From IMG/VR virus record IMGVR_UViG_3300015157_000061, positions 1 to 12,847 of that record: a stretch of 12,847 nucleotides of DNA; one strand, written 5' to 3'. The notes below the pieces were generated by a model. That model had not been told where the DNA came from and searched no databases. It saw only the letters and a list, made by a program, of their open reading frames with translations. The stretch's first letter is position 1; every line of letters begins with the position of its first letter. The translations under genes were made by a program, and so were the position numbers. Of the stretch, positions 6,478-12,288 are shown in pieces. Source of the DNA: a virus (Duplodnaviria > Heunggongvirae > Uroviricota > Caudoviricetes).

Positions 6478-8073
6478 TTATCGTCGCCGGTTAACAGCGG
6501 GTGGTTGCCCACGGTTGTCCGTCCCCACTTCACACAGATAAACGCCCCGCTGATTGCGGGTTTTCGGCATGGTGATCACCGGCTTGCCATAGACAGACGC
6601 GCCTTTTACCGGCAGCACACGGAAAACACCGTGTTTTTTTGACCTCTGGTAGACGATTTCACCATCGATCCCCCCGGTGTCCCAGCAGACACGGGAAATG
6701 GTCATTTCGGTGCCATCCGCATGGCGGTATTTTTTGTTGATCGCCGCATCCACACGTAACAGCGTCTCTTCCTCATCAGGACGCCCCATAATGATGATTT
6801 TATCCACCAGAAAAGCTTCCTCTCCCGGTGCCCATCCCCAGACATACATCTCAAAACGGTTTCGCTGCGAGTCAATGCCCGCCGTCAGATAAACCACCCG
6901 GGCAGGCACCGCCGCCGTGTAACGCACAACCTTATCCATCAGCACCTGGTGATCGAGTTTTTCGCCCACGGCCTCTTCCCAGGTCTCGCCCAGCGTGGTG
7001 TTCACAAAGGTTTTCAGGCCGTTGGGATCTTTCAGTGCATCCAGCCAGTCATAGACTATCTGTACCCAGGTGGTGAACGGACTGTACGCTGTCCAGATAT
7101 GGAACGTGATGGAGCGCGGCGGCGGAATTTCATTATCCGCGGCGCTGAAAAACGTCAGACCGTCACGGGTCCACATCCCCGTGTTTTCACAGATCCACCG
7201 CCCGTTGCTCTGGTCAAGCTCAGACTGATGGATCACGCAGCCATGATGTTCACAGAGGTAGAAAACGCTTTCGGGGCTGTCCTTCTCCCATTTAAGGCCA
7301 AAAGGCGTGGATTCATCGCCAAATTTCAGATACTGCTCCTCCCCACAGTGTGGGCAGGGCACATAAAAACGCATGAAATGCGCCGACTCGTTGGCCGCTT
7401 TTTCGATCTGGCAGGTGCCTTTGATTTTAGGCGTCGAGCCGCGAATGGATTTGGGCCATACAGAGCCCTCAATACGTTTATCCCCAAGCAGGGTTGGCGA
7501 ACCCTCTTTTTCGACATCCGGTTCGAACGAGGAAAGTTCGTCATAGCAGACCACGTCCACGGATTTTTCACGGTAGTTTTTGGCGGCAGCGCCGCCCAGG
7601 CACCAGAAACCCACACCCGATGAAAAGCGTTTCAGCGTGAGGGTATTGTCACGATGTTTACGCCCCAGCCATGGAAAAAGGTCTTTCAGACATGGCACAT
7701 CCCGAATCGTCGCCTCCACGTGAGACTTCATAAAATCTTCAGCGGCAGAATCCGTGGGCTGAAAAAGCAGACTGTTTCGGGATTTATGCTCAATAAAATA
7801 CCCGACCACCCCCAGCAACATCTTTGTATAGCCAACACGGGCAGATTTAATCAGATTAACAGTCCGGATCTGATCATTCCCCATGCTGTTCATGATGGCG
7901 ATCTGGAACGGCAGCGTTTTCCATTCTCCCTCACCATATGAAGATTCTTTAGGCAGATAATAATTTTGATCAGCCCATTCAACTGGCGTCACCGGCAATG
8001 CCCTTATCAGGGGCTGTAATGCTGTTGTGACAGCACTCATCATATTATTCAGTTGTTGCTCTGATATATTCAT
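6478..8073 (-). pseudogene. A: Terminase large subunit (lambda gpA-like), truncated: about 520 N-terminal residues then a 12-aa foreign tail
   Basis: MNISEQQLNN...VEWADQNYYLPKESSYGEGEWKTLPFQIAIMN...KSARVGYTKML...FMRFYVPCPHCGEEQYLKFGD...IWTAYSPFTTWVQIV...KGASVYGKPV...GVYLCEVGTD tracks remembered lambda gpA. It then ends ...NRGQPPAVNRRR* instead of the remaining ~110 aa. The likely true start is the internal Met (8071-8073), which overlaps the nu1 3' end as in lambda; the track ORF starts at 8130. Confidence 0.85.
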
Positions 8074-8554
8074 CGAGTAAATCCGGTAATTTATCCCCCG
8101 CCCGCGCACACTGATTTGCCCCCTTCGCAATAAGGGTTTTCAGATGGTCAAGATGGCGCGGTGTTAAATCAGGAAACTGTCGCTGCATGGATAAAGGGAT
8201 GGAATCAAGCGTACTGGATAACGCCATTGCCAGCTTGCTGAGGGCAAAAATACAGAACCCGGTATCAATAAGTTTTCCTTTTGACACCTCATTTTTTAAC
8301 TGCTGTGTAACAGCCTGTTCTGCTGTCAGTTCCCATCTGGCAATAAGCAATTTCTCCTCATAGTCGTCTTCGCTATCGCCATCAGGCACATCGTTTTTAC
8401 TTCTTCTCAGATACGATATGTAAAAATCGCGCCAGGCATCCAGATCCAGTTGCCCTCGCTTATTCGATATCGGGGCACCCGGCAATTTCTGCAATCTGCG
8501 AAGCTGGCGATCGGTCAGACTTAAATGCCTGGCAACTTCAGTCTGCGTAGCCAC
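8045..8554 (-). CDS. nu1: Terminase small subunit (Nu1-like DNA packaging protein), GTG start
   Basis: 169-aa ORF with an N-terminal HTH-like segment (TQTEVARHLSLTDRQLRRLQ). The C-terminal half (DTGFCIFALSKLAMALSSTLDSIPLSMQRQFPDLTPRHLDHLK...LLDEYI) parallels remembered lambda Nu1. It lies about 185 bp from cosN. Confidence 0.85.
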   Translation of the reverse strand: MATQTEVARHLSLTDRQLRRLQKLPGAPISNKRGQLDLDAWRDFYISYLRRSKNDVPDGDSEDDYEEKLLIARWELTAEQAVTQQLKNEVSKGKLIDTGFCIFALSKLAMALSSTLDSIPLSMQRQFPDLTPRHLDHLKTLIAKGANQCARAGDKLPDLLDEYIRATTE

Positions 8555-8737
8555 TCCTCACCTCGCAAAAACTCTCACTTCACAATCACAACAAAACCGG
8601 TCATGTCCGGCTTACATGTCTATTTTTTGTGCATGTCCGGTTCACAGAAGACCTCTTTTTTTATTTTTCATATAGTTAACTTGAAGAGAAACCGGACATG
8701 GTTCCCGGAAAATTTTCATAAATAGCGAAAACCCGCG
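8555..8737 (-). promoter_or_regulatory. cosB-like terminase-binding region with three copies of a 9-bp element (CATGTCCGG) plus a partial copy
   Basis: CATGTCCGG occurs at 8602-8610 and 8632-8640, and inverted (CCGGACATG) at 8692-8700. ACATGTC at 8614-8620 is a partial copy. AT-rich tracts lie between them. The position between cosN and nu1 equals lambda cosB (R3-I1-R2-R1). Confidence 0.6.
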
Positions 8738-8749
8738 AGGTCGCCGCCC
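8738..8749 (-). other. cosN cohesive-end site (12-nt GGGCGGCGACCT on the minus strand)
   Basis: Minus strand 8760 to 8701 reads AGACCGTTACG-GGGCGGCGACCT-CGCGGGTTTTCGCTATTTATGAAAATTTTCCGG, a near-exact match to the remembered lambda cos junction. Confidence 0.85.
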
Positions 8750-8972
8750 CGTAACGGTCTGGATCACCGGAAAGGACCCGCCAACGACTTTCGCGTGCAG
8801 GCATTAAAAATTTTGCAGTTCCATGCCTAGTTGAAACCTCGATTTCTATAACATCCAATTTTGTAAATTTAGATATAGCTCAACTTTTCCCAATGTTTTC
8901 AAGTGTATAAAAACAATTGGCGTTACGCCATAACACTATACTTAGGATAAGTAAAGATTTTAAGGAGTTTTA

Positions 8973-10040
8973 ATGAGTCAACATCAATATTATCCACAGC
9001 TGAAATGGAAGCCTGCTGAATATGAATCTCTGATGCTTTTAGATCAAACTACGCTCTCTGGTTTTACTCCGATCATTACCATTCCAGACATAGACTGGGA
9101 TTATGAAAACGAATGCTACAAGAAGAGTTTGAGTTCTTACTTATCTGACTTCGGTATTAACCTTGCGGCATCCTGGAAAGCCAATCGTCCTGTTTTGCTG
9201 GATGTTAAATATTTAGATAAACATGGTTCGAGCCGCCATCATCCTCTAGATATGTGTATCCAAGATGCTAGAGTAAATGGTAAGGAAATTATCCCTGTTG
9301 TTTCTCCCGCATATTCAACAAACTATATACATGCTGTTCAACGCAACTTAATCAATGGGCTCGCTATATCTATCACCCCCCAGACATGGCACCAATTCAC
9401 AAGTCTGGTTAACCACTTAAATATTCATCCTAGTTTAATTGATGTAATCATTGATTTTGGAGATATTCAAAACGCAACTGATAGTTTAAAACAACAAGCA
9501 TTAAGCATGGTCAACACATTATCAGGCCAAGCTCCGTGGAGAAACTTGATTTTATCTTCAACCGCATACCCAGCATCACAGGCAGGGATACCGCAACATC
9601 AAGTTCATCATATTCCGCGCCATGAATACGATCTTTGGATGTACGTAGTACAGAATTTTAGCAATGGAAGAACGCCAAGTTTTAGTGATTATCCCACCGC
9701 TAGCTCTACCATTACGAGCGTAGACCCACGCTTCATGTCTCAGTATGTCTCAGTGAGATATTCGAACGATACCTCATGGATCTTTGTAAAAGGTACCGCA
9801 GTTAAAGGAAATGGATGGGGCCAAACTAAAAACTTATGTACTACCCTTGTTAGTTCGCCAGAGTATCAAGTCTTTGGTTCCAAATTTAGTTGGGGGGATG
9901 ATTACATTTACCAAAGATCATTAGGCGCTAACAAATCTGGCGGCTCTAAAGAATGGCGTAAAGTTGCACATACGCACCATATTACGTTAGTCGTGAGACA
10001 GCTTTATTGGTTGGCGCAGACTCAGCCTGCCAAGCCTTAA
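8973..10040 (+). CDS. Hypothetical 355-aa protein in an AT-rich cargo island; possibly Beta-protein / sce7725-like (unverified)
   Basis: Track ORF with a strong RBS (AAGGAG, 5-nt spacer) before ATG 8973, AT-rich composition unlike the flanking phage genes, and no recognisable catalytic motif. The family suggestion rests only on size and the N-terminal YYPQLKWKPAEYESL pattern, from memory. Confidence 0.75.
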   Translation: MSQHQYYPQLKWKPAEYESLMLLDQTTLSGFTPIITIPDIDWDYENECYKKSLSSYLSDFGINLAASWKANRPVLLDVKYLDKHGSSRHHPLDMCIQDARVNGKEIIPVVSPAYSTNYIHAVQRNLINGLAISITPQTWHQFTSLVNHLNIHPSLIDVIIDFGDIQNATDSLKQQALSMVNTLSGQAPWRNLILSSTAYPASQAGIPQHQVHHIPRHEYDLWMYVVQNFSNGRTPSFSDYPTASSTITSVDPRFMSQYVSVRYSNDTSWIFVKGTAVKGNGWGQTKNLCTTLVSSPEYQVFGSKFSWGDDYIYQRSLGANKSGGSKEWRKVAHTHHITLVVRQLYWLAQTQPAKP

Positions 10041-10602
10041 CTTTCCAGCCTACGCGTTTCTTTAAGGCTGTTCTGACTTCAAGCCTGAGATTCGCTATTG
10101 GAATATTTTCCGCAATAATATTCCATAACTCAAATCGGGGCTTGCTTTTGATTCCTTTGGAATAGCCCCATCGTTCAAGTACGTCGATACATTCATCTTT
10201 CCAAAGCAATTGAGCGAGCATCAATGTGTCATGGTTTCGATTAAGCTTTTCTCCACGCATGTGCTTTATAAGAATGGCGCCTTTTGGCCCAACAGAAACC
10301 GTTTTAACGCCCCACCAACCTGGGATTAACTTTAATGCTCCCTCAAGATGTTTCTCAGCTACGACAAGAGTAACCTTGTCCATTACAGAAGAATAATGCT
10401 TGATTTGAAGAGGCAAACGCTCCAAAGAGTCATATTCACTTTTGAGCTCGTACCCGTGTATAACACCATTTATTACAGCAATGTCTGCTCTACTGGCGCC
10501 AAGGGATATGGAAAATTCATCGACCACAAGGCAGTCTGGATCTAAATGCGATTCTTTCAAAAGCTTATGATGCACCGCGAACCTAACATCTTGATCTTTC
10601 AT
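9982..10602 (-). CDS. Hypothetical 206-aa protein with a PD-(D/E)xK nuclease-like motif; possibly sce7726-like (unverified)
   Basis: Track ORF with a strong RBS (AGGGAGTAAGGAG, 5-nt spacer) before ATG 10600-10602. Motif VVDE(29)F...RAD(40)IAVINGVIHGYE(52)LK(54) fits the E / D / ExK restriction-endonuclease-fold signature. Its 3' end overlaps the 355-aa gene by 59 bp, convergently. Confidence 0.75.
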   Translation of the reverse strand: MKDQDVRFAVHHKLLKESHLDPDCLVVDEFSISLGASRADIAVINGVIHGYELKSEYDSLERLPLQIKHYSSVMDKVTLVVAEKHLEGALKLIPGWWGVKTVSVGPKGAILIKHMRGEKLNRNHDTLMLAQLLWKDECIDVLERWGYSKGIKSKPRFELWNIIAENIPIANLRLEVRTALKKRVGWKVKAWQAESAPTNKAVSRLT

Positions 10603-11018: not shown

Positions 11019-11456
11019 TTATTTTAAGCACTGCGTCCTGATGTACTCCTGCAGGTAGTTGACCTGCGCGGTTATCTTGTCGATTCCACTTCGGAGACGG
11101 TAATAATTGAGTTCAGCATCTGCTGTAAGTCTTGGGCTTTCTCCATTGCCCATGCCGCTGGCTCCGGTCGTTGACTTTGCACAGGTAGCGGCGACTTGCA
11201 GGCGCTTACGCCCAGCAGAAACATCAGCACGGAGGCTTTCGATAGTCGCGTTAGCATCAGCAAGCTCCTTTGTATATCTGGCATCGAGTTCTGCTACGTC
11301 ACGTTGACGCTTCTGCATATCAGCGATTGTGGATGTGGCTTTATCGCGCTGCTCTTTGTAGGTTATGGCGTTATCACGGTAATGATTCAGCCCCAGACTA
11401 AGCGCACCACAGGCCACCAGCAGGGCAATGATGACCACGCACAGTACGCGGTTCAT
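11019..11456 (-). CDS. Rz: Rz i-spanin (inner membrane spanin component)
   Basis: 145-aa ORF with an N-terminal TM segment and NHYRDNAITYKEQRDK...RQRDVAELDARYTKELADA...SPRL, closely matching remembered lambda Rz. GGTGG RBS precedes the start. Confidence 0.9.
   Translation of the reverse strand: MNRVLCVVIIALLVACGALSLGLNHYRDNAITYKEQRDKATSTIADMQKRQRDVAELDARYTKELADANATIESLRADVSAGRKRLQVAATCAKSTTGASGMGNGESPRLTADAELNYYRLRSGIDKITAQVNYLQEYIRTQCLK
11072..11257 (-). CDS. Rz1: Rz1 o-spanin lipoprotein, embedded in the +1 frame of Rz
   Basis: Embedded ORF MLTRLSKASVLMFLLGVSAC-KSPLPVQSQRPEPAAW...: signal peptide with lipobox (VSAC) followed by a Pro-rich stretch. The track ORF starts 9 codons upstream; the second Met is taken as the start. 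Confidence 0.7.
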   Translation of the reverse strand: MLTRLSKASVLMFLLGVSACKSPLPVQSQRPEPAAWAMEKAQDLQQMLNSIITVSEVESTR

Positions 11457-11754: not shown

Positions 11755-12288
11755 TTATCTGTCAATTCCCCAGCACGCCAGCGCACTCTCCTGGTCGCGA
11801 CGGGATACCTGACCGTAACAGTTGTTTGAGCGAATACGGCAGTCTCTGCCACCGTCCTTAATCCACCAGCGAATCGCCTCACACGCTCCCCTGCGATCAC
11901 CTGCATTAATTCGTTTATAAAACGTCGACGGAAAACACTTACCGGGGCCAATGTTGTACGGACAGAATGACGCGATCCCCGCTTTCTGGGGTTCACTCAA
12001 TGGCACTCTGATGTTTTTCTCCACCCATGCCAGCGCCTTATCACGCTCAATGGCGTTAACCCGGTCGCATTTTTCCTTCGACAACTTCATGCCCGGAACG
12101 ACAGGTTTGCCATCCACCAGGATGGCACCGCGGCAGATGGTCCAGATACCCGCGCCATCACGGTATGCCGTGGTGTGGTTACCTTCCTTTTCATCCAGAA
12201 ACTGGTCGAGAATGTCAGGCGCAGGCGCACCAGCGGCAATCAGCGCCAGAACGGCAGCCGACAGGCCGTATCTGATTTTTGCGTTCAT
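11755..12288 (-). CDS. R: Phage endolysin (T4-type lysozyme fold; N-terminal SAR-like hydrophobic segment)
   Basis: 177-aa ORF. EGNHTTAYRDGAGIWT fits the E-x8-D-x5-T catalytic signature of phage lysozymes. The N-terminus (YGLSAAVLALIAAGAPA) is weakly hydrophobic and Gly/Ala-rich, as in SAR endolysins. No obvious SD sequence. Confidence 0.85.
   Translation of the reverse strand: MNAKIRYGLSAAVLALIAAGAPAPDILDQFLDEKEGNHTTAYRDGAGIWTICRGAILVDGKPVVPGMKLSKEKCDRVNAIERDKALAWVEKNIRVPLSEPQKAGIASFCPYNIGPGKCFPSTFYKRINAGDRRGACEAIRWWIKDGGRDCRIRSNNCYGQVSRRDQESALACWGIDR

Follow-up and report, generated by a model that had tools for sequence, protein, structure and literature searches.

We analysed a stretch of phage DNA of 12,847 nucleotides, hereafter called the window, and conclude that the region in front of its small terminase gene is very probably a complete lambda-like cos, composed of cosQ, cosN, I2 and cosB, in which three short repeats correspond to R3, R2 and R1 and belong to the class of the prophage's own TerS. 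From their sequence and arrangement, the repeats are most likely binding boxes for that TerS. Because these boxes differ from those of lambda, are conserved, and co-vary with the recognition helix of TerS, the distinct packaging specificity suggested in an earlier note on this DNA appears to be the best reading of the region. We infer that this cosB and the DNA-binding domain of its TerS form a separate specificity class, which includes prophages Sp4 and Sp14 of O157 Sakai and the PhiR12 phages and is distinct from the classes of lambda, phage 21 and N15/Monarch. The region is an ordinary, not formally characterised member of a well-understood cosB/TerS specificity family, and its sequence is already in the literature.

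A decayed prophage that retains cos and nu1

Read on its minus strand, the window corresponds to the right-hand portion of a lambdoid prophage in decay (Table 1). In this direction the gene order is lysozyme, Rz, a two-gene cargo island, cos, Nu1/TerS and a truncated gpA/TerL, followed by gpZ fused to the C-terminal part of gpJ, then lom and a tail-fibre gene. The surroundings of TerS are those of a lambdoid prophage, with lysis genes, gpA, Z, J, lom and stf. Pfam assigns gpA ATPase and nuclease domains to the product of the gene next to TerS.

Table 1. Positions of the features discussed in the text. Window coordinates are obtained as 8750 minus the cos position.
Feature	Position	Strand	Remarks
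Truncated large terminase gpA/TerL	6478..8073	-	520 native residues of 642, plus 11 foreign residues
Nu1/TerS	8045..8554	-	169 aa, GTG start, apparently intact
R1 box CATGTCCGG	8602..8610	+	cos positions 140-148; R2 orientation; exact repeat copy
R2 box CATGTCCGGTT	8632..8642	+	cos positions 108-118; inverted relative to R3; 11-nt repeat
I1-like IHF site TAACTATATGAAA (predicted)	8666..8678	-	cos positions 72-84; A/T-rich R3-R2 spacer
R3 box CATGTCCGGTT	8690..8700	-	cos positions 50-60; proposed first TerS binding site; repeat and conservation
I2 segment, right flank of cosN	8705..8737	-	cos positions 13-45; identical to lambda
cosN, 12-nt cohesive-end sequence GGGCGGCGACCT	8738..8749	-	identical to lambda and phage 21
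cosQ (GGGTCCT), packaging-termination signal	8773..8779	-	within a 20-nt lambda-identical block
Cargo island	8973..10602	.	cosQ side, outside cos; convergent overlapping gene pair
beta-family protein	8973-10040	+	Pfam Beta_protein PF14350; PADLOC PD-Lambda-2_C, beta
sce7726/cII-like protein	9982-10602	-	NCBIfam sce7726 family; PADLOC 'cll'
Rz	11019-11456		on the minus-strand reading of the prophage
Lysozyme	11755-12288		on the minus-strand reading of the prophage

Deletions have removed the head genes, most of the tail genes and the final 122 residues of TerL from the prophage. The earlier note had described gpA as truncated with cos and Nu1 retained, and this is what we observe: TerL keeps 520 of 642 residues, and the 169-aa Nu1 appears intact. 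Up to residue 520 the TerL of the window is 98% identical to the PhiR12_1 protein, and 11 unrelated residues follow. The Pfam match to its nuclease domain covers only positions 3-212 of 294, leaving about 80 positions of that domain missing together with the C-terminus. At the corresponding deletion joint, near 6513, codon 520 of gpA runs into sequence just upstream of gpZ; a second joint, at about 5970, creates the fusion of gpZ to gpJ.

In complete genomes, close relatives of this prophage are inserted between potC and potB, where they form a decay series of growing deletions from strain B-JRPT-4119 to TOE17 to the window. The B-JRPT-4119 copy has a full TerL and tail genes, the TOE17 copy has the same TerL truncation as the window (annotated there as a pseudogene), and the window adds the Z-J deletion. 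The exact deletion pattern of the window is present in no complete E. coli genome; the closest of these genomes, TOE17 and AST46, cover 98% of it in three pieces.

cosQ, cosN and the flank of cosN

The earlier note had called cosN and its immediate flank near-exact matches to lambda. Cos positions 1-45, which comprise cosN and the next 33 bp, are in fact identical to lambda at 45 of 45 positions, and the 12-nt sequence GGGCGGCGACCT occurs only once in the window. As in a lambda-like cos, this cohesive-end sequence has conserved flanking bases, and cosQ lies upstream of it at the lambda spacing, within the 20-nt block CGGGTCCTTTCCGGTGATCC that is itself identical to lambda. The same cosQ has been annotated for Sp4/Sp14 (PMC2669165, Fig S8), and its GGGTCC is invariant in 10 of 10 aligned related loci. 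The I2 segment contains TATGAAAATTTTCCG, labelled IHF in the 2009 Sp4/Sp14 figure, and TTATGAAAATTTTC in this flank is nearly invariant across related loci. Terminase nicking and the initiation of packaging at the cosN of the window are predicted.

The cohesive ends themselves vary in the related loci L007, L009, L011-L015 and L103 (for example GGGCGACGCGCT and GGGTGTGCGAGG); in the same relatives the GGGTCC of cosQ and the TTATGAAAATTTTC flank are unchanged. This variation agrees with the reported tolerance of cosN positions 7-12 to change.

Three repeats in the arrangement of a cosB

The 12.8-kb window holds three exact copies of CATGTCCGG, all of them between cosN and the Nu1/TerS gene, and they are arranged as the earlier note had stated, two direct (8602-8610 and 8632-8640, plus strand) and one inverted (8692-8700, minus strand). 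Simple arithmetic gives an expectation of about 0.1 for an exact 9-mer on both strands of the window. With up to one mismatch allowed, there are 8 matches against 3.0 +/- 1.75 expected, a number reached in 0 of 200 shuffles. At R3 and R2 the match continues to 11 nt, and the two copies, CATGTCCGGTT, form an inverted repeat with 100% complementarity. A further copy, with one mismatch and oriented like R3, overlaps R1 (CATGACCGG at 8597-8605, minus strand; as CATGACCGGTT, 8595-8605, minus strand). A consensus scan also called terminator-like hairpins on the minus strand at 8594-8613 and 8692-8708; each consists of a CCGG palindrome, that of R1 or of R3, with a run of T after it.

The layout is that of a cosB: R3 lies near position 50, R2 is inverted and stands beyond an IHF-like site, and all of these come before the TerS gene. 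The candidate I1-like site, TAACTATATGAAA, has two mismatches to the consensus YAANNNNTTGATW, and the alignment, inspected by eye, has a perfect IHF consensus at the same place in four relatives (L005, L007, L009 and L014). IHF binding at 8666-8678 is a prediction.

The boxes are not of the lambda type, as the earlier note had observed: the window contains 0 CGTTTCC boxes, and 0 boxes of the phage 21 type, C[A/G]TGTCGG. When cos and cosB are aligned with lambda and phage 21, the identity with lambda over positions 1-45 gives way to chance-level matching over positions 46-190, of which 40 of 145 match lambda and 34 of 145 match phage 21. In the PhiR12 cos, which is 97% identical overall, the R3 and R2 boxes and the core of R1 are identical to those of the window.

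If the region works as lambda's does, the winged helix-turn-helix of its own TerS class would bind R3 and the inverted R2, and an IHF-type bend in the A/T-rich spacer would bring the two boxes together. This assembly would place TerL on cosN to make the 12-nt staggered nicks, after which packaging would run towards Nu1, A and the tail genes. Given its orientation, opposite to that of R1 in lambda and 21, and its absence in several relatives, the role of R1 as a third box is putative.

The small terminase

The TerS of the window begins MATQTEVARHLSLTDRQLRRLQK (Met read at GTG), and its gene lies directly upstream of the gpA-type TerL gene and overlaps it, the arrangement of a gpNu1-type protein. 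PF07471 (Nu1) matches residues 49-150 with E = 1e-18. The earlier note had pointed to an N-terminus unlike that of lambda, and tblastn bears this out more widely, aligning only residues 64-166 to the TerS of lambda, 21, N15 or phi80. The first ~60 residues had no sequence-level match in the PDB, and the best Foldseek hit to a 63-residue TerS model had an E-value of 0.27, which is not significant. Despite the lack of detectable sequence similarity, the N-terminal domain is predicted to be the same winged helix-turn-helix as in lambda gpNu1, which likewise has a Nu1-family C-terminus. We propose that residues 1 to ~55 are the DNA-binding domain and residues 15-23, DRQLRRLQK, the recognition helix.

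The protein is 99.4% identical to the PhiR12 Nu1. The two hallmarks of the Sp4/Sp14-type class, a TerS domain of the form MATQxEVAxHL...R(Q)LRRLQK and ATGTCCGGTT boxes, are both present in the window.

Conservation of the boxes and their co-variation with TerS

We retrieved the DNA that precedes TerS homologues in Klebsiella, Salmonella, Citrobacter, Enterobacter and metagenomes, as well as in isolated Aeromonas and Pseudomonas phages. The box core TCCGGTT is conserved across 15 independent related loci. Across 10 aligned loci, with TerS identities of 60-99%, the spacers are unalignable and invariant columns are concentrated in cosQ, the cosN flank, R3 (TCCGGTT) and R2 (AACCGGA). The offset between the R3 and R2 cores is exactly 54 nt in 10 of 10 loci with a two- or three-box cosB (L005-L015, L103); it is kept although the spacer sequences are unrelated. 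The boxes are therefore kept across genera in related cos regions, one of the points on which the earlier note had made its proposal depend.

Furthermore, R3 and R2 change in concert among loci, to ATGTCC, ATTTCC or ACTTCC, and the fourth base of the box goes with residue 20 of TerS. Arginine at this residue accompanies G in 5 of 5 loci; with Asp, Asn or Thr the fourth base is T or C and never G (10 of 10 loci). The association has a Fisher p of 3e-4, calculated on phylogenetically related samples with kinship uncorrected. Two loci fetched afterwards to test the rule, L103 and L104, both fit it.

A scan of viral contigs yielded 80 loci (L020-L099), all with TerS 99% identical, which inform on variation within the type only. 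R3 lies at position 50 in 38 of 38 distinct IMG/VR cos variants with the standard cosN and is also present in both variants with a different cosN. Within this 99%-identical group the box columns were not polymorphic significantly less often than the spacers (Fisher p = 0.58), and the mean number of variant sequences per column was 0.68 for boxes and 3.3 for spacers. A scan of genome contigs, made with the TerS alignment, gave a single distant locus, from Azospirillum.

E. kobei (L015, Enterobacter) and Klebsiella (L005) likewise have a third box oriented like R2; R1 is absent from several relatives. In one IMG/VR variant among L020-L099, u37, the 30 bp between R2 and R1 are missing, as if the two direct boxes had recombined, and Feiss has proposed box recombination of the same kind for the origin of the simple cosB of N15. 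Distant members of the TerS class have a simple cosB, namely the Aeromonas phage phiARM81ld (L102, 1-80), the Pseudomonas phage LPPA33 (L101, 120-165) and the metagenome contigs L017 and L104. These have one box and, after it, a tandem half-repeat (TTCCGGTTCCGGTT) at 16-23 nt from the TerS start. The box of LPPA33, CGTTTCCGGTT, contains lambda's own R core, CGTTTCCG.

One E. coli locus (L016, CP028741) joins a TerS C-terminus nearly identical to that of the window to a DNA-binding domain of the N15/Monarch type. Its cosB boxes are GGTTGTTGTT, with R3 forward, R2 reverse and R1 forward. Thus the repeats follow the DNA-binding domain, as expected of TerS binding sites. TerS mosaics of the same kind were seen in P0056, P0069, P0073 and P0076, and at least three classes of DNA-binding domain are joined to one Nu1 C-terminal module.

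Occurrence of the class and earlier reports

In 2009 Asadulghani et al. had already published, for Sp4 and Sp14 of E. coli O157:H7 Sakai, the Nu1 sequence of this class and its cos up to the start of R3 (PMC2669165, Fig S8). The N-terminus, ATQTEVARHLSLTDRQLRRLQKLPGAP..., and the C-terminus of the Sp4/Sp14 Nu1 are the same as those of the window, as are cosQ, cosN and I2, which run into ...CCGGGATCCATGT. That figure marks only cosQ, cosN and the IHF site, and its alignment ends at the first bases of R3; cosB boxes and a specificity class are not described in the paper. The prophage in the window differs from Sp4 and Sp14 in its locus (potB/potC) and in its deletions. These cosB boxes were not described anywhere in the literature that could be searched, a body that excludes several papers by Feiss, and a literature search with the box sequence returned only unrelated primers.

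The cos and Nu1 of PhiR12_1 to PhiR12_5 are 97% identical to those of the window. These five deposits are complete phage genomes whose named host is K-12 MG1655 or E. coli C; the PhiR12 phages are plaque-forming, and this type of cos is functional elsewhere. The cosB and TerS type occurs in 1167 of 5426 complete E. coli genomes (~21%); a carrying genome has it at 2 places in the median and at 4 at most. Because multiple copies per genome are frequent, cognate helpers often co-reside.

The adjacent island and packaging in trans

The island begins at 8973, 224 bp from cosN, in line with the distance of about 220 bp given in the earlier note. Its gene pair is similar to beta and cII of the P4 gop-beta-cII defence module, and no gop was seen. 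For most other genomes, similarity sets in only near 8787, just beyond cosQ, so the spot by cosQ is a variable cargo site.

The earlier note had also suggested that a helper phage might package the element, island included, in trans. Packaging of the element by a helper is plausible and has a published precedent, which also means that the idea is not new: Sakai Sp4, whose nu1 is disrupted, was still found as DNase-protected particle DNA, and this was credited to the Sp14 terminase on the basis of the identical cos and Nu1 of Sp4 and Sp14 (PMC2669165). The inclusion of the island fares less well, since it lies on the cosQ side and chromosomal packaging from this cos would run away from it, through Nu1, A, the tail genes or their remnants, potBA and phoPQ. 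In lambda, initiation needs cosN and a cosB matched to TerS; termination needs cosQ, cosN and I2 and is independent of the type of cosB. Helper packaging of a passive prophage requires two tandem cos sites; cos phages need a second cos to finish and do not carry out lateral transduction. The island would be packaged only if the element excised and multimerised, or if packaging initiated upstream ended at the cos of the window. A helper must supply a TerS of the Sp4/Sp14 class; lambda itself should not initiate here, if the more than 1000-fold discrimination between lambda and 21 is a guide.

Alternative explanations

It is highly improbable that the repeats arose by chance or serve as operators of a regulator (of the island or of late genes) or as an RNA or DNA hairpin rather than as terminase sites. 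The CCGG palindromes do score as terminator-like, and R3 and R2 can pair in a single-strand fold, but the z-score of this fold is only -1.77, Rfam gave no matches, and the promoter and terminator scan returned only by-products of the palindromes, so the RNA or hairpin reading was rejected. Chance is countered by the shuffles, none of which reached the observed copy number. Against operators, the boxes stay with the class of TerS domain across genera while the cargo upstream is wholly different, and both their positions and the 54-nt offset hold constant with respect to cosN and TerS. There is equally little to be said for a cosB that is simply of the phage 21 type, with a specificity already well characterised. 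Phage 21 (M81255) is the textbook alternative cosB/TerS specificity, sharing cosN and cosQ with lambda, and of the 8 positions of the window core CATGTCCG all but one agree with the phage 21 R2/R1 core CATGTCGG. However, the differing base is the equivalent of bp 59, one of the two discriminators between lambda and 21; the window box has the base of phage 21 at the bp 56 equivalent and that of lambda at the bp 59 equivalent, and work of the Feiss laboratory found both positions to be critical to the discrimination. In addition, none of the boxes annotated in the GenBank entry M81255, C[A/G]TGTCGG, occurs in the window, the rest of cosB is unrelated (34 of 145 positions), and the TerS, with its MATQTEVARHLSLTDRQLRRLQK start, aligns to gp1 over residues 64-166 only, at 40% identity, its helix DRQLRRLQK facing the lambda-like PRTIERWQS of gp1. 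Phage 21 identity was rejected on this comparison, close as the boxes are.

Our preferred reading, a complete cos with boxes for its own TerS class, does not by itself tell whether this copy is now active, and here two possibilities bear weighing. One is that the copy is an inert fossil: its sequence is intact, but the host never contains a cognate terminase to cut it. The heavy decay, with TerL truncated and head and tail genes deleted, and the progressively more deleted relatives at the same potB/potC locus would suit a fossil; yet cosQ, cosN and I2 match lambda undamaged, R3, R2 and the R1 core match functional phages, and E. coli often carries co-resident copies of this type, so that we regard a fossil as unlikely, if still deserving of some weight. 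Unlikelier again is the converse, that survival of cos and Nu1 allows the element and its island to be packaged in trans and to spread. The packaging of Sp4 by the Sp14 terminase with the same type of cos and Nu1 (PMC2669165), the frequent co-residence of cognate helpers (1167 of 5426 genomes, median 2 places, up to 4) and a cos that is intact by comparison with the functional PhiR12 phages speak for it. Several points weigh against it: chromosomal initiation packages away from the island on the cosQ side, a second cos is needed at a packageable distance in phages that do not show lateral transduction, and lambda-type helpers should not initiate, by analogy with the >1000-fold discrimination between lambda and 21. 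Moreover, the two further deletions shorten the element, probably to well below a head-full, and any int, xis and replication genes left in the source genome lie outside the window.

Meaning of the class

The class is present in about one fifth of complete E. coli genomes, O157:H7 among them, and often more than once. The recognition boxes tell which prophages can package one another's DNA, which bears on the spread of defective prophages and of virulence or defence cargo. We tentatively suggest, at somewhat less than even confidence, that this is a fourth lambda-like specificity, fully orthogonal to those of lambda, 21 and N15; that one contact, between residue 20 and the fourth base (Arg with G, Asp or Asn with T), sets a further sub-specificity; and that the intact cos sites of decaying prophages of this class are handles for packaging or termination by co-resident siblings, which could move cargo such as the beta/cII-like island beside cosQ. 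The pairing of residue 20 with the fourth base offers a simple, testable rule for changes of packaging specificity, and it is compatible with the genetics of lambda versus 21 from the Feiss laboratory. The general picture of cos packaging is unchanged.

Comparison with known systems

The window and lambda share the cosQ block, cosN and positions 1-45, and beyond these the same order of R3, IHF site, inverted R2, third box and TerS gene. The positions are also close: R3 and R2 lie at 51(+) and 110(-) in the window, at 53 and 114 in lambda, and at 53 and 112 in phage 21; the distance from R3 to R2, 5' end to 5' end, is 67 bp in the window versus 68 bp in lambda. At the I1 place the window has TAACTATATGAAA at 72, and lambda (TAACTTAATGTTT) and phage 21 (TAACTTTTTGTTT) have their sites at 74. 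The TerS start codon is at cos position 196 in the window, 191 in lambda and 189 in phage 21. The R3 of the window is 3 bp nearer to cosN than that of lambda or phage 21, and shifts of lambda R3 by more than 1-2 bp have been reported as harmful. The R1 of the window has the R2 orientation, whereas R1 of lambda, 21 and Monarch has the R3 orientation.

The earlier note had set the repeats apart from the R elements of lambda. They are indeed a different set, but not an unrelated one, since CATGTCCG agrees with lambda CGTTTCCG at 6 of 8 positions, bp 56 being among the two that differ. The lambda specificity, with its CGTTTCC boxes and IRTIQNWQE helix, is not that of the window, where the helix is DRQLRRLQK; nor is the phage 21 combination of C[A/G]TGTCGG boxes with a PRTIERWQS helix. 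The N15/Monarch box, GAGGTTGTTGTT, and DNA-binding domain, MxxLLNKSDMASSIGIS..., are both unlike those of the window, and the pairing of GAGGTTGTTGTT boxes with a LLNKSDMASSIGIS-type domain is seen instead in L016.

Gram-negative PICIs with Rpp (Fillol-Salom 2019; Murialdo and Feiss 2022, PMC9026076) have a short Rpp without the TerL-binding C-terminus and a simple cosB. In contrast, the window encodes a full-length 169-aa TerS with a Nu1 C-terminus in a decayed lambdoid prophage with a three-box cosB, and it is not a PICI. There is a parallel in organisation with N15/Monarch, in which one TerS class goes with either a three-box or a single-R3 cosB (Feiss et al. 2015, PMC4669245). The class of the window splits in the same way, with a complex cosB in enterobacterial prophages and a simple one in phiARM81ld, LPPA33, L017 and L104, and the TerS proteins are mosaics, with swapped DNA-binding domains on a common C-terminus.
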